Below, piece after piece: positions 3,001-64,000 of a stretch of 64,000 bases of DNA. Source of the stretch: Cystobasidiomycetes sp. EMM_F5 (lineage: Eukaryota); contig JBPGPT010000009.1 in NCBI GenBank assembly GCA_051047955.1, positions 248,001 through 312,000 of the forward strand, read 5' to 3'. The notes under the pieces were generated by a model. The model did not search any database. It worked only from the letters and a program-made list of their open reading frames with translations, and was not told the origin of the DNA. The translations under genes and the position numbers were made by a program. Position 1 is the first letter of the stretch, and each line of letters opens with the position of its first letter.

Positions 3001-3343
3001 AGTAGCTTCTTGAGGGGTTGCGCCTAGGAGCTGCAGAAAAGAAACAACGCGCTATGCACAAGGCCTAAGATTTCATAAAACTATGGCCGAAAGTGGACGA
3101 TTTGGCGAGGACGACGACGAAACTGCAGAAAGCGGGAATCCAGGCTGCCGCCGGGTGGAGCGCGACTCGGAAGAGTATGTGTTGTTGCTGCATGCATGCA
3201 GAATGGGCAGAAAGGCAGTTGCGGCCCGAGCATCAATGGGCTTGACGGAAAGGTGCAGTCCCGTTGTTCGTTCCAAGAGAGGGCGGTCGCAGTTTGCTCG
3301 GACACCTACAACTCCACAAGGCTGACCCGCCTCGACTAACAAC

Positions 3344-4094
3344 ATGGTATGCTTTTACGTGCTCATTCGTAAATCCTTGCACGGCTGACCGGGACTCGCT
3401 GGTCACAGGCTGCAAATACGCAAGTGACGGCCATTCACAATGTCCAAGTGATTTCCGGTCAGGCTGACGTTGACAACACTATACAGATCCGGTATACAGA
3501 CGCTGTTGGATGCGGAGAAGGAGGCCGCAAAGATTGTGCAGAAAGCCAGAGAGTGTGAGTTGGCCCTGCGACCAATTGAATAGACCTGCCAGCTGGGCCA
3601 AACATCCGTCCAGGCAGGCTGAAGGCTGATATTTTACCTCCGTGTATGATGTCCCCTTCGTATGCGCCGGGTGCTACGCCATAGACCGCAATCAAAGGGT
3701 CAAGGACGCCCGCGGCGAAGCTGCCAAGGAGATTGACGCCTACAAGACGAAACAGGAGAACGAATTCAAGGCCTTCGAGAAATCGGTGTGTGAAGTTGCT
3801 CTGCCTACGCACACATCTTCAATCTGACGTGTTCGCACTACCCCGGCCTTGCAGCACTCGGGCGATAACGATTCCATGCAATCCGACCTCGACAAGCGTA
3901 CTGAGGAGCAACTCTCGACGATACAGTCACAATTTGATGGTAATCGCAAGGTAGTCGTGGATAAGCTTCTGTCGAGGGTACTCGAGGTCAGCTTTCACTG
4001 GTTTTAACGCGGATCGCCCAGCTGAATATCGTATCTTGACCAGGTCGAGGCTTCACTGCATCGCAATTACAAGAAGCCGCAGACGTCTATGTAA
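3344..4094 (+). CDS. VMA10: V-type ATPase subunit G
   Basis: Spliced product MAANTSGIQTLLDAEKEAAKIVQKAREYRNQRVKDARGEAAKEIDAYK...LHRNY. Has an ATG-only first coding exon and an 11-nt exon at 3409-3419. Confidence 0.93.
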
Positions 4095-53392: not shown

Positions 53393-53516
53393 CACTGCAG
53401 AACCGGGCTGTATTTTGAAAGGGTCAAAAAGGGCATGAAAGACCAAACAGCCTTGCGCCAGTCCCAAAGCCGTTGTGCAATAGTCGAGCAATAGCTGAAC
53501 AATTACATATGATTTT
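53393..53516 (+). repeat. Left imperfect terminal inverted repeat / subterminal region
   Basis: GCAGAACCGGGC (53397-53408), GAAAGACCA (53437-53445), TTGTGCAATAGTCGAGCAATAG (53473-53494) and TATGATTTT (53508-53516) all recur inverted and in the same order at 62612-62780. Confidence 0.75.
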
Positions 53517-53531
53517 TGTAGCAATTGCTCG

Positions 53532-53692
53532 TTGCCTTCATTACTCTTGCCCTTGACTTGCGCTTCCCTTGCACAGGTCTTGCGCCCCCATTGCCTTTGC
53601 CTTGCTGTAGCAATTCAAAGCTATTGTTCACGCATCAACATTGCCTTCCCTTTGCCTTGCTTCGGTCTGGCAAAAGTCCACTGCTTTGCCTT
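53532..53692 (+). repeat. Cluster of short subterminal repeats TTGCCTT
   Basis: Copies at 53532, 53591, 53597, 53641, 53652 and 53686. Confidence 0.6.
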
Positions 53693-53842
53693 GTACGACC
53701 TTTCCCAATAGTAGCATATGGTGGCGAAGGGTCAATGCACGCGACAGGAAGACGCAGCAATAGACGGCAGGAAGCTAGTTGATTACACCGTCACGTTGTT
53801 CTACAATCACAAAATCACACTTTGATGTTCTCTGCTTTTGCT

Positions 53843-55532
53843 TCACAGATATTTGGCGACCTTAGCCATGTTACGGTACCTTGCAATGCTAGCTGCCTCC
53901 GCCTTGTCCACGACCTTGCGTCCCATTCCAGCATAAAATGCTTGCCCTTTGCAGGGAGGCTCGCATCCACCGCAGTGACCGATATTGACGTGCTGGTAAA
54001 GGTCGTTGCTGCCTTCCAGGTTGACGAAAATTCGATGAGGCTGCCGGGAAACAAGCACGTCAGCGCAGAAGTGACATTGCCAAAGTATGTGCTCACAGTC
54101 CGTGCACATTTCTGACGACGAATATTCCGCTTGGGACTCTCGATGTGAATATGACTCGGAGTGAGGCAGGAGGTGTGGTGGCAAAGGTGCGAAAGATGCA
54201 GACTACCTTTGGCCTTTTGGTTTGCTTTGCGATACTTGCGCAGATCAGGATGCCTGCCATTCTGCATCAGCCACAGTTGACGTGCTGATGAAATTGCGCT
54301 CACTTCGGACCGTACTTCGCAACGGCGAGTACCTTATGAAGCGTCAATGTTTTGAAGCCTTTTATAGTCAGAGTTGGGTAAGCGCCCTAGCAAATGAGTA
54401 GATTAGCAAAATCATACGTCTATGTTATGTGTGTCAGAGAAGCTCACGGCTTGATTGGCGCCCATCATCAAACAGCCATGAGATAATGGCAGTTTGACGG
54501 CAGCAGGGCGCTGACCCCACTTGCTCGCCTGTTTGGCGATGGCATCCAGGGCTTGGTTCTTGCTCAGGTGATACCAATCCTTCTTTGCGTCTTTCGCCGG
54601 TGGAGTGATTTCCGGCGATGGCTGTAGTTGTGGGGCCGATGGAGATCCTCTAGGCGGGGTCGACAGAACGCGGGCGGGTGGCCGCGAGATGACAAAGACC
54701 TCAGTCTTAGACGGTGTCTCAACCCGCACTCGAATTGGCGATTTAATCCTGGAGATTTTGCGAGCTTGAACGTCTCTGGCCGGCGGCGGTGTGTGCGGAA
54801 TTGCCGCTTTGACGACGACTGGGGATGGAGACTGCGGATGAGCCTTGACAACGACATCTGCTTCCACGAATCGCGTGTGCACAGGGGTAACTTTGACATT
54901 TTCTGAGCGAAAAGACAGTCAGGCAAGACCGACTGAAGATTGCGGAAAATCATACCTTTTTCTTCGATTATTTGTAGACCGGCACGGTCTAAGCAAGTGT
55001 GACACACTTTCTGTGCATCTCTGACGGCATCGTAAGCTTTGTCCAGAGCTTTCGTGAGCCTGGCTGGGTCTTTGCCATAGGCATGTTCAGCAACCTGCAA
55101 TCTGGCCAAGTTGCTGCATAATTCGGCCGTCTCTTGCTGCAGATCTTTGACGAGGATGACCAACTGTGTCGTATTATAGGGATGGCGATGGTCCTTAATA
55201 GGCCGGATTTTGCGCTGCGGCGAGGTCGACTGCTGGCGGCCAGAAAGACGGCTGAAAGCCTGAACGTGTGCTGGACTGCGCACTTTGCGATGTGCGTTGG
55301 TTGCAGTACTGTCTAGTAGTGTATGCATGCTGTCGACGGTATGTCGTCCAGCAGCGTGATGCCCATGCAAAGAGGAAAGAGGAAATTTGGGTGACCACAC
55401 CGAAATCGAGCAGAAGTCGAGGACAGTGCGCTGTGGCTGCACACATCGAACGTTAACGTGTGATTTTCCCAGATTACGTCGTCGTACAAGTCGTAGCTTC
55501 TTCTGCTTTGCCAAAATCCCTTGTCTGATCAT
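53843..55532 (-). CDS. His-Cys box / His-Me finger (I-PpoI-like) endonuclease A with long basic, Pro-rich N-terminal extension
   Basis: Exons ..54956, 54902-54448, 54386-54304, 54253-54097 and 54040-53843 splice in frame to GCLMM..GAYPTL..LHKVLAVAK..SHLCHHTSCLTPSHIHIESPKRNIRRQKC..HCGGCEPPC. Start uncertain (55532 or 55329). Confidence 0.8.
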
Positions 55533-55729
55533 GGAGTCCTCGAGGACTGTTGACGGCAGCTCGTCCTGTGCGTGCTGCACGGAAAAATGGAAAAGACCAT
55601 GTGGATCCTGGCGTCTAGTCTTGGACAAAAACCAGCGTCCCTTGCCTGCTGCTGTCTGTCTAGCTGCTGCAGCTGTACTGCCCGGTATCCGTCTATTTTG
55701 GCTGGCCGGCGGTCACGTGCTCGAAAAAA

Positions 55730-56538
55730 ATGGACGACACTGCAGCTCAGCTGAAAGCACTGTCAAAACTCACGCAAGAAGAAGCGAAGGCTGCAATCAA
55801 GAGAATTAGAGACGGAGGCTTGGTTGGAGACGTCATGTATAAGCCAGCTGTCGTAATCCCCATTACGGATTGTATCTTGGCTCAGCCGACAGACCCAGTC
55901 AGTTGAAGTTCATCAAAATCACACGTGTATGTTCAGTACTGATGATTGGCAGGAGTGGAACGGCGGCTATATGACCATCAAGGTCAAATCGGGATGCTCA
56001 GACTTTGTCCATCGCGTGCTAGTTGTGGCGAAAGGGTGGGAACGAAATCTACGATGCTCAGCAGAGCCTCGCTAAACGTACTATGCCAGAAAAACACATG
56101 TCAAAGCTCTGATGCAAGCAGGAAACGACGCATCGCACCGATGTCACAACGTGTTGTGTCTGAATCCTGACCACATCGAGGTGGAGACGCATGCGGAGAA
56201 CGCAGCTCGTAAGATCTGCTCATCAAGAGTCAGCCTTCTTATAGTGATACCGGAGATGCCCGTTGACTCACTGTTGCATCCAGTTAATGTACCTCGTACA
56301 GATTGAAGATCAAGATTACATCGTCGCTCCGCCAGAATGTGCACACAAGCCTGAATGCATCCCTAGATTTGTAGAACTCGACTGTGAACGCGTCTTGTCA
56401 GACCAAATGAGGGCAAAGGTAGCTGCACTTCGAGAGTATCAGGCTGAACTTGGCCGAAGTCCCAGTAAGGTTCAAGTCACCCGTAAAGGGAAATCGGCGA
56501 CAGAATCAGAGTGGAGCACCGATGAGGAGGGACGTTAG
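55730..56538 (+). CDS. His-Cys box / His-Me finger (I-PpoI-like) endonuclease B (~210 aa)
   Basis: Exons 55730-55897, 55953-56035, 56090-56228 and ~56284-56538 give DCIL..GGYMTI..VHRVLVVAKG..SHRCHNVLCLNPDHIEVETHAENAARKIC..ECAHKPEC. Confidence 0.85.
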
Positions 56539-56654
56539 GCTGCGGAGAGTCAGGCAGAGAGTCAAAATAAAATCACACGTGTTCATTCGGAGTTCGAACT
56601 TCTTGCAGTCTTTAGTATGGCTGTGCAGCTTTGGCTGGTCGATTGCTCAGTCAA

Positions 56655-59600
56655 TCAAATTAGTCGTACTAGTCCTCGATTGAGATAGAATTGTCTGACG
56701 TTTGCCGGTAATACCGCATGATCTAGCTGAGTCGGAACGACATGCGGCGGAGGTTGGCTGCTGACAGTTCCCAGCGCGACGACGTGACCGAGAGGGGCGA
56801 AAGGTTCAAAGCGATATCGTTCCACAGGGCCTAGATTAGTCGGCTGGTTAGGCGTCTTGCACATCCAGTCAACCGAGAGGAACACGTGGTATCGGCTGGC
56901 CCACTTATGAGCGAAAATAGCTCTGACTGAGCACGGCGTGCCGACTTCATCGGTGCGGTTGATCAAAGTGAAGTCGCCAGTCGTGATAGTCACTCGGCGA
57001 TGCAACAGATTGTCGTACATAACGATTTTCTTGAAACATTTGATGCGACCAAGGTTGCCTGTGAGAAGAACTGCATTTCTGTCATAGAAAGCCGAATAGG
57101 CTTGTATGAGGCTATCCCTGAATTGCAAAATCTGTCGCATCGTGCCGACTTCTGCGTGCGATTTGCCGATGTCGTCAACGAAATTCGCCGCTTTGACCTC
57201 CTTCTTTGTCATCTCCGACACCAAACGGATATTGTTGAATCTGCAGAACAAGAATGTGTGATTTTCACGGGTGATCTATCGCATAGCAATGCATAGCTCA
57301 CCGGTCCGGAATGCTGACTATTGTGACCCCTTCTAAAACTGATTTGTCGAGGATCTGCTCGTTGTCCACTTCGACAATATTGTTGTCGTGATAGTATCCA
57401 GAGAGCAATGTCGGACATACTGCTTCGAGATCTAATATAAAGCGAGCTGTTTGGTCGACGTCGAGCTCCTTGCTGGTCTTGATGAGGCGCAACGCCTGAC
57501 CGATGTTGTCTTCGCGAATGAATGTGGAGCCAGTGTCTCGTTTGTTAGTTTTGCTCATCAGTCCCTTGGGCAAGCGATGAACACTTTCATCGATGGATAC
57601 GCTCGCATTTAACAGATTGCCCACAGCTCGAGCCGAGTCGGCCATATGTAGGGCCGTATGCATGTTGGGGAGCGCGTAATCAAGACCAAAGGGTTCCAGC
57701 AGTGCAGCCAGAGCGATCCGACATTGACGAGCTGTAAGATCCAGGTCGGCGTACATCTGCTGGGTAAATTCACGCTGCAGCGACAGCCACACGTGTCGAT
57801 GGATGAGCACGGCGACTGCAACGACTTCGCGGAGGACTACATCACTACCCTGCGCCTTGATTGTCAGTGCTTTTGGGCGAATACCCCTGTTGCGGACTGA
57901 TGGCATTATTATTGTCAAAACCAGGGGAAGTATCGATATCATGGCGACAGCTTCGTGCTGTGTATAGCTTCCGGCGTGCCCGATGGACCGAACAGAGGAG
58001 TATGATTTTGGCATCGGGAATCCGCCAGCTTTGCCTCTTGCCATCGCTTTGGAGATCGCATCGACGGCCGCTGGCGATAGGACATGCTCGACCAATGGGA
58101 TCAGAAAGCGGTCCTTTACGAGACCAGAGGAGTTAGCATGCGAGACGTCGACCGGAAATTGAGAGTGCGGGTCCACAAGGACTCCCGTCCGAATATAAGG
58201 GGATGATTTTTCAGCTAATCCATACCGTGTCAGTTGCTCTTTGCATGCTTTGTCCGTAGGCTGTTCGATTGCCTCTGCTCGAATGGATTCCATTGCACCG
58301 GCTTGCCGATGGCTCTTGAACAGCTCAACTGGACTCATCAGCATATCTCCTAGACTAGCTTTCGTCACCAGGCAAAACCGACAGCCACAAATGGCATTGG
58401 GCGACAGACATCCTGCCATACTGTTGGCCTCTGGCATGTCGAATCTCGCATAAGTCATGTCCAGATAGATATCATACTTGCGTCCTTTCAAATCGACTTC
58501 AAACGGCACGACCGCATGACGTGCCAGTTGGCGCAAGGAATGTTCGAACGCGTCGTAGAAATTGGCGCCTCCGTTGATCATCAGATCATCAGCCTGGCAT
58601 CCCAAAGCAGCGTACCGAACTCACCATATGGAGTATAGCCGTAGATGAAATGGTTCCGCATTTCGTCGCGCACCCGAAACGGTAGATCCGCTGGCATAAT
58701 GTAGAAACCACCTATAGCGTGATGTGCGGTCCTGAACGCACCAAACTTGTCGTAGTAGTGGGAGAGGTGTAACACAATGGTGTGATTTGAGTCCTCCTGC
58801 TCCAATTCTTCCATAGAGACAACGCCGTTCGCAAGTTCCAGTTCGGCTCGCGTGAAGGGCAAACAAGAAGATTGTGCAAAGCCCAGTTGCTGTTCGCTTG
58901 CTGGCCAATCTTTTCCCCAAATCACACATGTCTGTTAGTGGGGCATTAGCTGATTAGACGGAAGAGGCGATGGTTTACTTTCGTTGATCTGGTCTGTAGA
59001 ATCACTCTTGCGGCGCGAAATCTTCAGCTCGGACGTTGTCATTATATCTTCTATCAAAACTTCTTGCTCTTCGTCGACCAGTAGAAAGTACGGTCCCGCC
59101 GGAAAACCGATGCCCTCTTCGTACGTAGCTAGCAATTCCGCCCATTGTGCCGCATGTGGGCCAGATTGTAAAAACAGGATCAGCTCGGCTCGGGTCTTGA
59201 TAGGCTGTACATGAGCCGTGATTGCACCGTCCTTGTCGCCCTGACGGAAGATACCGGAGATCCGTCCGAAGTAGCGACGCTGTGCTTGCTGATATTCGAC
59301 AATGCTGCCTGGCCAAATCCAAGCTTGTAATACCAATGTATGATTTCAGCTCAATCGTAAGCGCCTGGTGATCTCTGAGCACGCACCTCCATCTTGCGCT
59401 CGCAGAGGATAATCCTGTCGCGAAGATGCTATGCTTTGCCACCATAGCTGGCCATGCCAGACTTCGTAACGCTTAGCTAATTTGATCCCCAATCCCTGAT
59501 GAAGCTGTCTGAAGAGATCTGGGTTGCGCAGGATACGTTTCTCGCAAAAGTCCGCTAAATCATACTGGAATGATATGGCGGTTTTAGTAGTTGGTCCTTT

Positions 59601-60388
59601 CCATGTCTTGGTACTTCTGACTTTGACGTTCACGGGCCGCTGCACGACCCTAGTAAGTTTGAGACTCGCCATAGACTTCAATAATGCTTTCTTGCTAACG
59701 GGGAGCTGTGATGGATCAAAATCAGGCAGGAGCAGGATTTCACGGAGTTGGGAATAAAGCCGCCGAGACAGCTGATTAGTAGAGACCCATATCGCGATGG
59801 CGAGGTTAGTCTTTGCTGATGGGCTCAGCGCCTGGGCATCATCGGCCTCTTCGCCAGGACCTTCACCCGGATCATCTTCGTCAAATCGCACATGATCATT
59901 CCAAACCACGTGCAGGGGCTCATGCACGCCCATGGAATTGTTCGATGCCGAGCTTCTTCCTCCGATGCTGCTCACAGAAGATTCGGTGTCGGAACATGTG
60001 GATTCGCTGGTATCGCTTTCGCTGACGCCAGGGTCGGAGAGAGAAACATCTTCGAATGCGGGATCTGCAAACACATTTTCCACCAGAAGTCGTGTCAGTC
60101 AAAGCTTTGGCTAACATATACGTATGATTTCGCACCTATAGCTCCGGCAGTCTCCACTGGTGCTGAGGCTTCGCCAGGGGGCAGTTCTTCAGGCCAGTAT
60201 CCATCGTCACCAACTCCGTAGTCCACATCATCCATGTCCATGTGTTCATTGACCACATCGACAGGCTCTGCGACTGATGCGCGCTCGACGGCTCGGCTCC
60301 GCTGTGCGCGCTTGCGGAGTTTGGGTTGCCGCAGAGGAACATCGCTACGACTGGTCGCATATATGTTGGACAGCTTGGATCCTGCCAT
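56655..60388 (-). CDS. DDE transposase, CMC/EnSpm(Plavaka)-like, ~1,100 aa, six exons
   Basis: Motifs WHGQLW, RAELEL, HYYDKFGAFRTAHHAIGGFY, FDMPEANSMAG..CGCRFC, DVSH, LPNMHTALH and SIDESVH. Exons can be joined in frame without stops; two joins need AAG or GAG acceptors. Confidence 0.8.
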
Positions 60389-60613
60389 CAGTAATGGTCA
60401 GTCTCGTTAGATTCTGCTGGAGATTTGACTTGTGATGTGTGCGGTCGAAGTCAACCTCATTTACGCGGACTTCATCAAACGGCTCCGCCACTTTGATGCG
60501 AAACCTGACTTGCATCAGTGGTCAATCTCGACACAACCCATCCAGCAAACCACGATCCTCTGACGGAAGCTCATGATGGACTGATTCCACCTATTGTCTC
60601 ATGCTCAGGCGTC

Positions 60614-62406
60614 ATGCCTTCCCGTAGCAGCTCTGGCCGCTCCAGCCAAAAGGACAAAAGCCCCGCTCGGGGCCCGGCTGGCCATTCACGTAAAGGTTCG
60701 AATGGTGCAAACGAGGATCTGACTGAAGTGGGTAGTGACTCGTGCTGCACAAACGGTTGTGTTGCCGTACTGACATTGCGTAGAATGATGGCAGCAGGAG
60801 GGATGGGACCAGGCGCAAGAGTACCAATGCAGTGACCCACTAACATCGACATATGATTTTAGCATAAAAGCTGACTGTGGGTGTGCGATACAGAACACTC
60901 GATTCGACGATCTTCTAGACGAAAATCGGCCCCTCCAGACAGACGCTCGCTCTCGCGTCAACGAAATCAGACAGGAGGTTGCGGACAACCGCCGGCAGAA
61001 GAAGACCAATGTTGTTGGAAGTTCGGACACATCGGATAGCGAGGAACAAGAATCCGACAGACGAGAGGCTGTCATTAACTTTAGCCAAGATGCACCCGAT
61101 TCCTCTCAGAGCGGCCGGCCGCTGCAGGCTGTACCACCCTCCCCAAGGGGGCAGCGTCGGCGTCAGCCTGTTACAGCAGCTACATCGTCCAAGCGCAAGG
61201 CCACAGAGTCAAACGTCGACTCGTCAGCAGAGGCTGATGCGGAAGAGGCCGATGATCCAGCCTCACACAAACGTGCCTCGAAGAAGAACAAGAAAAAGGC
61301 AACAGGGGCAGAGGTGACTTACAAAGCAACTTCTGATGGTCGCAAATGGACTTCCAAGCAACGTGGAACTCCCACTGATGTGGTGAGCGGAACTTAGACG
61401 TGCGATTTTGATAAAATACTGATCTGGACTAGTACAGTACGATGGCCTTGGTGCAGAACTCAAGACATATATGAACAACTACTTTGCGTACAAGGCTGTG
61501 TGGGGAGATGAAGACATACATACCATCCTGAGCTGCCTTCAACAAGGCGAAGGTCTGGAAGCGCTGGGCTGGGATTTTCAAACCGATCAAGGTCTATTTG
61601 TGAGCTTTCGAATGGTCTGACGGACCGTATCTGACTCAATGTGGCAGCATCATTTGAAAGGCAAAATGCTGGCGTACCGTAGCACACAGCAGGTGAAATT
61701 ATTGAAAGCCGCGTCTGAAATCGCCGTCAAATTTCTTCGAGACCTCTCGGCTGGCAAGGAATATCTGGAAGGAGAGTGCGTCACAAGCGTTTGCCCGGCA
61801 CAGCATAATACCAACGTACGATTTTGCAGAGATACCCGTGATTCTGACGACCACAGTCCCATACTTCCCAACTGGGCTCAGGTCGTCAAACTAGTGCAGA
61901 CGGATGAAGTGGTCAAGACTATATTGTCCGCAATTCTGCCAGGAATCAATGTCGCTGCCGTATGGAACCCTCGCACGGAGCAAGAGATTGAAGCGGAAGC
62001 GGAGCACAAATTCAAAATGAAATTGACCCAATTGGCTTTATTTTTGGTCAGATGCGAGGCCTGGCGACTACGTAGCCAGTACAAGGTCATCAGTGGGAGA
62101 GTAGTTGAGGTACGAGATCTGTACGGCGATGAATACATGATGATCTAAAAGCATGGTTGATATTCGTAGAGAGGGAAATCACGAAATTGGGATGGAAGCA
62201 CTATTTCAGGCATGCTGCTCAGTTTCTCCACGTCCAAGACCGCTGTCGTCGACACTAGCGGCGATCCAGTCTTCTTTCCCATAGCGGAGCGCACTGTCTC
62301 TCGAACCAGACATGACAAATTTGTCGACGGCGACGAGTGTGGATTGGATGACATGGAGTTTGTAGACGGCGAGCTGAGAATGAAAGAGACAATAGCGGAG
62401 GGTTAA
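60614..62406 (+). CDS. Element accessory protein (multi-exon, basic/acidic low-complexity N-terminal half), divergent from the transposase
   Basis: Spliced MPSRSSSGRSSQK..; long open exon from ~60894 to ~61381 with NLS-like KRASKKNKKK; further exons to a stop at 62406. Family not recognised. Confidence 0.65.
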
Positions 62407-62611
62407 AGCGTCCATAAACGAACGGCCTGCAGAGGTTCTTCAGTGTGTACACAGTCTGAGCGTCGTTGTTTACTAAATTTGCAACAAATGCTGCATCGGG
62501 AAGGCTTTTGGTAGCACTGCGACAACATTGTGAATGCTAATCGGCCTTGTGTGCCCAGACCGCATCGCATGCGCTGGACAGGCAGATAGGTGGCGCAAGA
62601 CTTGGGCAAGT

Positions 62612-62784
62612 AAAATCATACAATTACATTCTGACAATCTACACACAACGCGTGTCAAACTCTTGCACGTCTACTGCACAAGCATTGCCCGGTCATTGCT
62701 GAGCTATTGCGAAAGTCTGTCTAGCTCTTGCCGATCTTGCGTGGTCTTTCCTGGTCTGTCGCAAAAAGGCCCGGTTCTGCTATG
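62612..62784 (-). repeat. Right imperfect terminal inverted repeat / subterminal region
   Basis: AAAATCATA (62612-62620), an 18/22 match block (62660-62681), TGGTCTTTC (62742-62750) and GCCCGGTTCTGC (62769-62780) mirror the left end. Confidence 0.75.
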
Positions 62785-64000
62785 TCGGACAAAAGCGGAA
62801 GCTAGAGGAAGTTGACATTAAAAGGGCTGGCGTGCGAAAGCTAACGTTTGGATAGACTGATTGTTCACTTTGCACAGCTTTAGACTTGTTTGAAGACGCA
62901 GCAAGCGTAGTAAAGACTGCGAAGTTGGACTGCGGCTTTTGCGGGACTCGCAGCAGCTGGAGATTATCCTGACCTTCCCACTGTCATCTTTCCTCTGACA
63001 CACAAGCATTCAGTTGCTGCTTGTCTGCCTTCCTTTACACGTCTGAGACCTTCTACTATATACCGGCAGCTGGATCTGCCTTCTTCACTTAAGCGCTGGT
63101 CGACAAGCACATAACCCCGACTGATCCCACCATTTCGAATCCTTAACCATCTCGTTCCAAAATCACACAATCTTCTGTCGACCTTTGCAACCATGCTTCA
63201 TTCGATAAACGGCCCTTTTCCGATGGCATCGCAAGTCGTTCCGCCCGCTCAGCTGCCCGTGCGCTCCGGTAGGTGGCGGAAACACCCAAAGCTTCGCTCA
63301 ACAGTCTGACACTCGAGCCTTTTGCACCGATTTTGCGACGAATTTCTCTCGCTCGCTTGTCCGCACTCCCTTTGCACTCTGCTCCACCCATCTTCTGTTG
63401 CGTCCTGCGTACCCTCTGAATGCGCACAAACCGTCTGTCTCGGGACGCCATTACCCTAAACATCTGACTGAGCTCCGGCTTGTTGGCGACGCATTCTGCC
63501 CGATAACGCACGTCACTATTCCAACACTGTGATTCTGCGAGGACAGCTTGGGCACCAGGGCCAGTCAATGCGACTCTGGAAACGCCTGTTCCACTGCATA
63601 CCACGCACTGGTCACACAACGGCCAACAGAGGGCATACATAACAGGCTATACGCCGACAGTACGGCCCTTCACACTTTGGCCGCAGAAGATCCCATTGCA
63701 TAATTTGCGTGCTTTGGAGAAGGGCTGTTTCGGTCTCACCCATCCTCTGCAAAGCGCTGCCGTCGGTCGCTATACTCAAAAAATCTCGCGACGAGGGCCA
63801 ATTAGCCGAACGCATCATCCGCACGCTTTCTTCGCGAAGCGCACACTGCCACCAGCGCCCTTCTCTGCAAATAGACAGTCAGGTCTACCTGCGCCGCATT
63901 TCTCTCCCTCGCATCTGGATCGCAAGCTTGCAACTTATCGCAAGCGTCACTTTGCCTTTACGGGCGCCCGTTCCGGGCCGCATCGAATTTCGCAAAAGCC

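Follow-up and report, generated by a model that had tools for sequence, protein, structure and literature searches.

Terminal inverted repeat copies in the introns and spacers of a fungal-type DNA transposon as candidate binding sites for an element-encoded protein

The 64,000-nt stretch of contig JBPGPT010000009.1 analysed here (hereafter, the window) contains one copy of one transposable element of 9113 bp (53508-62620), which carries genes for two nucleases (EndoA and EndoB), a transposase and a protein termed ORF4, and in which a short motif is scattered through introns and spacers. The core of this motif is the terminal inverted repeat (TIR) of the element itself, the core belongs to a bipartite site of ~20 bp, and the host DNA flanking the element fits the extended part of that site; these three observations go beyond the original prediction, which had described the short motif. 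The internal copies are candidate double-stranded DNA binding sites for a sequence-specific protein encoded by the element, a reading of the sequence that is held with slightly more confidence than doubt, and the protein would most probably be the end-recognizing DNA-binding part of the transposase.

Element boundaries and the motif core

The bounds of the element were set by its TIR and target site duplication (TSD). A perfect inverted repeat of 9 bp, TATGATTTT at 53508-53516 and AAAATCATA at 62612-62620, is directly abutted on both sides by the 8-mer CAATTACA (53500-53507 and 62621-62628), and because a perfect TIR adjoins a TSD identical at 8/8 positions, the element is fixed at 53508-62620. 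Among 54 inverted pairs of motif copies, the outermost pair alone has flanks matching at 8/8 positions (the runner-up has 6), so the internal copies are not the ends of nested insertions; the proposal that they delimit nested mini-elements was rejected, with a TSD at no internal inverted pair. The features that define the element are as follows.

53508..62620, whole element, genes in the order EndoA (-), EndoB (+), transposase (-), ORF4 (+); defined by TIR and TSD, Pfam and gene models
53500..53507, left TSD CAATTACA; the same 8-mer at 62621-62628
53508..53516, + strand, left TIR TATGATTTT, which is the motif core on the - strand; second-block score of the outside flank 8.20 (see below)
62612..62620, + strand, right TIR AAAATCATA; second-block score of the flank 4.42
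62621..62628, right TSD CAATTACA; 8/8 with the left TSD

The core AAATCRYAC occurs 19 times in the window: 18 times in the element, never in bases 1-53505, and once at 63160. Within the strict bounds 53508-62620 there are 17 copies in 9113 bp, compared with a mean of 0.31 and a maximum of 3 in 1000 dinucleotide shuffles of the element. An unbiased k-mer count of the element returned only pieces of the motif as the top 8-, 9- and 10-mers; AAATCACAC was found seven times inside the element and not at all in the left flank, and the NN of AAATCNNAC is purine-pyrimidine in 18/19 cases inside the element and 1/8 outside. The exact 10-mer AAAATCACAC is present six times (53811+, 55458-, 55915+, 56569+, 57256- and 63159+; 0.17 expected per window, with six reached in 0/100 shuffles), and variants extended by ACGT are present seven times (54409+, 55456-, 55916+, 56570+, 60120-, 61398- and 61814-; 0.12 expected, with the observed count attained in no shuffle).

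The coordinates of these exact and variant copies (6 versus 0.17 and 7 versus 0.12 expected) had been listed in the original prediction and were all reproduced, as were the 14 nt that it reported as common to the copies at 55915 and 56569 (AAAATCACACGTGT) and its variant in both termini (AAAATCATA, at 53508 on the - strand and 62612 on the + strand). Its list was correct in the positions given and too short in total, since AAATCRYAC occurs 18 times in the element. The absence of the motif from the first 53 kb, which had been judged by eye, holds for AAATCRYAC across bases 1-53505, and the inside-versus-outside count proposed as a check, made here within the 64-kb window, gives 18 cores in the element, none in the 53.5-kb flank and one at 63160, with no host intron in the 53.5 kb carrying it.

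An extended, bipartite site

When 21 copies (the two termini, the copy at 63160 and the 18 internal sites) are aligned by their 9-mer, a bipartite site of ~20 bp emerges, AAAATCRYAC-N5-TGTT(C/A), in which the second block is represented by T at offset +14 (15/21), G at +15 (14/21), T at +16 (20/21), T at +17 (19/21) and C or A at +18 (19/21), positions that played no part in the selection of the sites. No conservation was found outside offsets -2 to +18 in the 21 aligned copies, and this abrupt end of the similarity indicates a discrete site rather than shared ancestry of whole introns. The second block was considered as a degenerate copy of the TIR and rejected by eye, given that +16 is T in 20/21 copies where the TIR has A.

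When offsets +9 to +18 were scored leave-one-out against 107,000 background positions, 16/18 internal sites came within the top 1.8% of the background; the two internal copies without a second block, at 57156 and 59557, are both exonic. A scan with a 22-column matrix at a threshold of 15 bits recovered the 16 training sites, both termini and one extra weak copy in the element at 58201. In the 53.5 kb of the left flank, a single position reached 15 bits (3347, 18.3 bits; ~0.3 such positions are estimated to be expected by chance) and just three reached 9 bits. That single position, at 3337-3356 on the - strand with the core AAAAGCATAC, is the sole strong extended near-match outside the element, and it stands directly after GTAAAA, resembling the 5' end of a host intron. 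Visual inspection turned up two possible decayed cores: EndoB intron 2 contains CGAAATCTACGATGCTCAG, and GGGAAATCACGAAAT is found where the last ORF4 exon starts. Both regions (56036-56089 and 62170-62190) remained below 9 bits in the matrix scan.

The copy at 63159 lies outside the right end of the element, as had been recognized, and its inclusion in the motif set is probably not justified. The second block is missing from this copy (score -8.33, background fraction 0.56), and for this reason, together with the 0.17 exact 10-mers expected per window, it is not counted as a member of the set and probably fits chance. The individual sites are listed below, the number closing each entry being the leave-one-out second-block score unless marked otherwise.

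53811..53830, +, extended, antisense to EndoA and downstream of its stop codon, which ends at 53843; 9.02
54408..54427, +, extended, EndoA intron 2 (54387-54447), antisense; 10.63
54946..54965, +, extended, the core coinciding with the 5'-most 10 nt of EndoA intron 1 as read on the other strand (GTATGATTTT) and the second block lying in exon 1; 3.28
55448..55467, -, extended, divergent EndoA/EndoB intergenic region; 7.61
55915..55934, +, extended, EndoB intron 1 (55898-55952), sense, the intron position matching that of EndoA intron 2; 11.17
56569..56588, +, extended, in the spacer that separates the EndoB stop (56538) from the transposase stop (about 56655); 5.73
57156..57164, -, core only, transposase exon 6, without second block; -6.69
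57246..57265, -, extended, transposase intron 5 (57241-57301), sense; 5.05
57990..58009, -, extended, transposase exon 5, encoding PKSYSSVR; 3.37
58191..58210, -, weak, matrix-only copy, transposase exon 5; 15.6 bits
58770..58789, -, extended, transposase exon 4; 2.50
58918..58937, +, extended, transposase intron 3 (58910-58978), antisense; 7.21
59328..59347, -, extended, transposase intron 2 (59324-59386), sense, homologs gapped here; 5.72
59557..59565, +, core only, transposase exon 2; -2.34
59882..59901, +, borderline extended, transposase exon 2; 2.69
60112..60131, -, extended, transposase intron 1 (60065-60135), sense; 9.41
60841..60860, -, extended, core AAAATCATAT, ORF4 intron 2 (60832-60893), antisense; 9.71
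61390..61409, -, extended, ORF4 intron 3 (61383-61437), antisense; 7.75
61806..61825, -, extended, putative ORF4 intron 5 (61776-61856), antisense; 7.00
63159..63168, +, core-only 10-mer beyond the right end of the element, followed 35 nt downstream by a host ATG; second-block score -8.33

Placement and orientation of the internal copies

Coding sequence makes up 74.1% of the element, introns 11.7% and the remaining non-coding sequence 14.2%, and the gene models that underlie these figures are guided models resting on splice consensus, open frames and partial homolog support, so that the 18 introns are predictions. The 18 internal cores comprise 10 intronic, three intergenic or untranslated region (UTR) and five exonic copies, which amounts to an excess in introns (10/18, binomial p = 9e-6) and in non-coding sequence as a whole (13/18, p = 5e-5, non-coding sequence being 26% of the element). 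Exactly one copy is found in 10 of the 18 introns and two copies in none, and motif-bearing introns are longer than the others (63.1 versus 54.4 nt, one-sided p = 0.014). Outside the site, the introns that carry it are unrelated to one another in register. The putative ORF4 intron 5, at 81 nt, is in frame and open and could be retained. At the exonic site 57990..58009, the encoded PKSYSSVR is identical in the alignment consensus and variable among the three relatives.

Relative to the genes, the copies show no preference for either strand (7 sense and 8 antisense within genes), and their distance to the 5' splice site varies between 0 and 51 nt, while EndoA intron 2 and EndoB intron 1, which occupy matching positions, both carry their site on the + strand and thus in opposite orientations relative to their genes. 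The lack of strand bias, the variable place within introns and the EndoA/EndoB orientation together point to a DNA-level signal rather than a splicing signal. The original prediction had argued as much from the presence of the motif on both strands, and had placed it in the introns and spacers of the element genes; the strand counts and distances bear out the first claim, and the guided gene models, with 13/18 copies in non-coding sequence, agree with the second.

An RNA-level signal (a variant splice site or branch point, the site of a splicing regulator or an intronic small RNA) has already been largely rejected and is the least probable of the explanations considered, because, even though the reverse complement GTRYGATTTT resembles a 5' splice site and is in fact that of EndoA intron 1, and the TGTTAG variant of the second block is the reverse complement of the branch-point-like CTAACA, the sense and antisense counts and the 0-51 nt spread given above, the intergenic and terminal copies, the lack of the motif in every host intron of the 53.5 kb and an empty Rfam search at E up to 1 all speak against it.

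Host flanks at the termini fit the second block

At the real termini the second block is host DNA, consisting of the duplicated 8 bp plus TTC. When these flanks (the TSD and 3 nt outside) were scored with a matrix built from the internal sites only, the left flank obtained 8.20 (background fraction 0.0004) and the right flank 4.42 (fraction 0.0055). The target before insertion can be written GAA-CAATTACA-TTC, from one insertion. Since the host flanks fit the internal second block, the internal sites resemble an end already joined to such a target. The match between flanking target and internal site suggests that a target preference could be read from a single copy of an element.

A stronger version of this idea, in which the internal sites would imitate an end joined to the preferred target (end, 8 bp, TTC) and act as an immunity or decoy system, is regarded as rather unlikely. 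It would imply one protein surface reading both end and target (GAA-N8-TTC). It would also mean that a product-like site every ~500 bp blocks self-insertion or titrates the transposase and so limits copy number, which is equally doubtful, and that the introns of the element genes are kept largely to house the sites, a corollary on which similarly little weight is placed.

Genes and genomic setting

The four element genes, all with open reading frames in the guided models, are the following.

53843-55328, -, EndoA, 421 aa, 4 introns
55730-56538, +, EndoB, 214 aa, 3 introns
56655-60388, -, transposase, 1137 aa, 5 introns
+ strand, ORF4, about 476 aa, 6 introns

EndoA and EndoB both match the Pfam family zf-His_Me_endon (E = 4e-13 and 3e-11), are paralogous (35% identity over 78 aa, E = 3e-10), have three intron positions in common and are transcribed divergently; EndoA additionally has an N-terminal part of ~270 aa with abundant proline and basic residues. 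For ORF4, Pfam returned no family, the word-index search no relatives and the Atlas only weak matches (0.80).

The transposase appears from its similarities to belong to a rare, poorly described lineage that is distantly Plavaka-like. No Pfam family scored above threshold for the transposase exon of the window, and its match to the Plavaka model is weak (19.1 bits versus a cut-off of 26.3); a Plavaka scan of 55 relatives gave seven weak matches, with two relatives exactly at the cut-off, and in the transposase exon and these seven relatives the match falls on the C-terminal third of the Pfam profile. An exhaustive HMMER search of 1.84 billion representative proteins found 128 relatives at E <= 1e-3, the best of which is 51% identical. 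A word-index search for longer relatives found none, and of the 287 stretches matched when metagenomes were scanned with a transposase alignment of four sequences, none was confirmed. A tblastn comparison with the 128 relatives spans transposase exons 2-6, and the relatives have a gap of ~20 residues exactly at intron 2. Intron 4 contains a perfect 8-bp tandem duplication, GATCATCA x2.1 at 58576-58592, of the same length as the TSD of the element, which could be the excision footprint of a transposon making 8-bp duplications. A frameshift arising from this duplication was rejected: the alignment of relative P0039 runs unbroken over the intron 4 junction, and the duplication therefore does not break the transposase gene.

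With its frames open, its TIR and TSD perfect and neither repeat-induced point mutation (RIP) nor CpG depletion evident, this copy of the element looks young and intact. A RIP signature is absent from the element (TpA/ApT 0.56, (CpA+TpG)/(ApC+GpT) 1.35), and the CpG observed/expected ratio is 0.98 in the element and the host alike, which gives no sign of methylation pressure. RIP or CpG decay was accordingly rejected as the origin of the R/Y variants of the motif. The GC content of the window is even, between 0.49 and 0.54. The first 53 kb are made up of ordinary eukaryotic genes (Symplekin/PTA1, an NTF2-domain protein, XPG-N and the fungal-type peroxin Pex24p), at least four host genes being recognizable in the 53.5-kb left flank, and the introns of the region under study are short, measuring 48-81 nt, and have GT..AG ends and branch points resembling CTRAY. 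The source was taken to be a fungus from this gene content and these intron features.

A second class of repeats is present near the ends of the element, and these CTTGCC-type repeats look like classical subterminal repeats. They include a tandem array with a 22-nt period at 53546-53605, three copies of CTTTGCCTTG near the left end (53595, 53650 and 53684), and CTTGC[CG]C, which is on the + strand near the left end (within 53546-53700) and inverted, on the - strand, near the right end (within 62589-62610); in addition, 53568-53589 and 62589-62610 form an inverted repeat of 22 nt that is 86% complementary. The insertion site itself is situated in a small repetitive host sequence (53478-53507), in which an 11-nt unit resembling CAATAGCCGAA is repeated 2.4 times and reaches the left TSD, and GCAATAGCT at 53488-53496 has an inverted copy at 62702-62710, ~75 nt past the right end.

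Interpretation of the motif

A 20-bp site equal to the element end, its recurrence in 16 unrelated places, its variation limited to R/Y and its placement where coding sequence allows together argue for a reader of double-stranded DNA encoded by the element. Since the core is the TIR, the end-binding domain of the transposase is the first candidate, with ORF4 or the nucleases as possible alternatives. The motif would then be the element's own end-recognition sequence, composed of the core AAAATCRYA (the 9-bp TIR) and the second block, with one 20-bp site at either terminus, directed outward, and 16 or more in the interior. The copies would be housed wherever a compact element tolerates 20 fixed bases, namely in introns, UTRs and the divergent promoter, and with protein bound over the full 9 kb, the machinery of the element would recognize the DNA as 'self'. 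The preferred use of such marking would be control of the four element genes, followed by the assembly and pairing of the two ends of a long element, and thirdly by protection against insertion of the element into itself.

There are a number of points that weigh against this interpretation. Internal ends that can be cleaved should be hazardous and could serve as alternative ends, and known arrays of transposase sites are usually subterminal rather than spread over the whole element. The CTTGCC-type subterminal repeats could be the true sites of an accessory protein. Additionally, two internal copies have no second block, and three to four are exonic and may be explained by coding sequence. The orientation of the sites tends to change along the element (the + strand in 5/6 to the left of 56.9 kb, and the - strand in 8/10 strong sites to the right), but this switch, nominally at p = 0.035-0.043, is not significant after split-corrected permutation (0.11-0.16). 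Finally, the evidence derives from one copy of one element, and the gene models are predicted.

Two further explanations, judged unlikely to a like degree, take the sites to be something other than binding sites of the kind proposed. According to one of them, the 20-bp sites would be recognition or cleavage sites of EndoA and EndoB as His-Me finger nucleases of the I-PpoI/I-HmuI type, possibly working as a heterodimer whose target is asymmetric and partly palindromic. The element does encode two paralogous His-Me nucleases, the length of ~20 bp and the short palindrome around ACGT in many copies presumably resemble homing-endonuclease targets, and at the termini the center of the site lies 1-2 nt from the boundary between element and flank. 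However, cleavage of 16 internal sites would destroy the element, and the core is identical with the TIR, which is normally the site of the transposase; no paper tying PF05551 proteins to transposon ends was found in open-access text, including the available part of PMC5714182.

The other explanation holds that the copies are a by-product of intron origin or homogenization, through introner-like seeding with one end of the element or through gene conversion, and have no binding function. In its favor, 10/18 introns carry one copy each and are ~9 nt longer than the rest; partial direct repeats of the core (RATCRY) within 39 nt upstream of 5/18 sites (1.0 expected, p = 0.004, post hoc) hint at local duplication, and the host sequence at 3347 (-), at 18.3 bits, is intron-like. 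Against this, the similarity ends at the 20-bp site with the remaining intron unrelated in register, the copies occur in both orientations relative to the genes as well as in exons, UTRs and an intergenic promoter, no internal pair has a TSD, and just three positions in 53.5 kb of host DNA reach 9 bits. The introns also have no paired inverted repeat within them, unlike stwintrons as described in the accessible portion of PMC12403724. A test for mirror introns on the motif strand was not significant (YAG downstream in 13/16 versus a null of 57%, both signals in 6/16 versus 20%).

It is highly improbable that the copies are host transcription factor sites collected by the element, or an effect of chance or composition. 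Several copies contain ACGT or CACGTG cores, which we take to be of the bZIP/bHLH type, and one core, at 63159, lies in a host 5' region; nevertheless, there is no core in 53.5 kb with at least four recognizable host genes, the core is identical to the TIR, and chance is excluded by the shuffles.

If the sites are bound by the transposase or a partner, the element would be an example of a fungal-type transposon whose recognition sequence labels its entire length and not the ends alone, with the introns providing room for this labeling. Such a system would offer a handle on end finding and end pairing in long eukaryotic cut-and-paste elements, on the joint regulation of several genes and on the avoidance of self-insertion. 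The analysis also defines a transposase lineage that, in this element, shows an 8-bp TSD, a 9-bp TIR and two His-Me nucleases.

Comparison with known systems

As far as the sequence allows a comparison, the internal sites would fall into a known category, the cis-acting sets of binding sites of transposons, and the new feature would be the dispersal of TIR copies in introns; no description of a fungal transposon with TIR copies in introns was found in the open-access literature. The TnpA-binding repeats of En/Spm (CACTA) and the subterminal repeats of Ac and Hermes are cis-required binding sites of an element-encoded protein and occur in both orientations. Repeats of the En/Spm type are grouped near each end, no more than a few hundred bp away, and do not have the sequence of the TIR. 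The element resembles En/Spm in having multiple short candidate sites in both orientations, and its transposase lineage is distantly related, as indicated by the weak Plavaka match; it differs in that its copies span 53811-61825 and equal the TIR, with the CTTGCC-type repeat forming a separate subterminal class. TnpA is described in the available text of a preprint as a regulator derived from a transposase, and the same text presents transposases as sequence-specific regulators of their own copies (10.64898/2026.08.24.746577).

A sequence common to many short introns at unrelated positions is also a property of introner-like elements and stwintrons. In introner-like elements the similarity extends over whole introns, which are in sense orientation and spread through host genes. 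Stwintrons of fungi, according to the accessible sections of PMC12403724, are similar in sequence and have paired complementary 10-nt repeats near their termini. Unlike either, the element has 20 bp in common among its introns, on both strands, with one copy per intron and within the element only.

Extra copies of the ends within one element are likewise found in Mutator-like elements with multiple TIRs, judging from the portion of PMC3310237 that was available, and the ends of piggyBat that restrain its activity (PMC11707139, likewise in part) offer a parallel in that end-site content may tune activity. Those cases, as far as these portions describe them, involve long TIR duplications or end sites, in contrast to the ~16 short copies, mostly one per intron, reported here. 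The termini also set the element apart from Plavaka A and B, which, in the part of PMC12730594 consulted, have TSDs of 2-3 bp and TGT..ACA or CATCA..TGATG termini, unlike the 8-bp TSD, the TATGATTTT..AAAATCATA termini and the Pfam score below the cut-off in the present case.

The nearest functional analogue, by likeness of arrangement, would be the VANDAL21/VANC21 system. In the available text of PMC5735166, the VANC21 protein binds YAGTATTAY in introns and in intergenic and terminal non-coding regions of Arabidopsis VANDAL21, and VANC motifs form dense tandem arrays in one orientation that are distinct from the TIR. The analogy to VANC drawn in the original prediction stands with respect to non-coding enrichment and element specificity, and fails with respect to tandem arrays in one orientation: TRF found no tandem array of the motif in the element. 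ORF4 showed no detectable similarity to any protein beyond the weak Atlas matches, and the host is fungal-type with a CpG observed/expected ratio of 0.98. What the two systems have in common, on the evidence of that portion of PMC5735166, is a short, element-specific motif that is concentrated in non-coding parts and rare elsewhere; what distinguishes the element described here from the VANC arrangement is that its motif occurs as single copies approximately every 500 bp, on both strands, with a core that is its own TIR.

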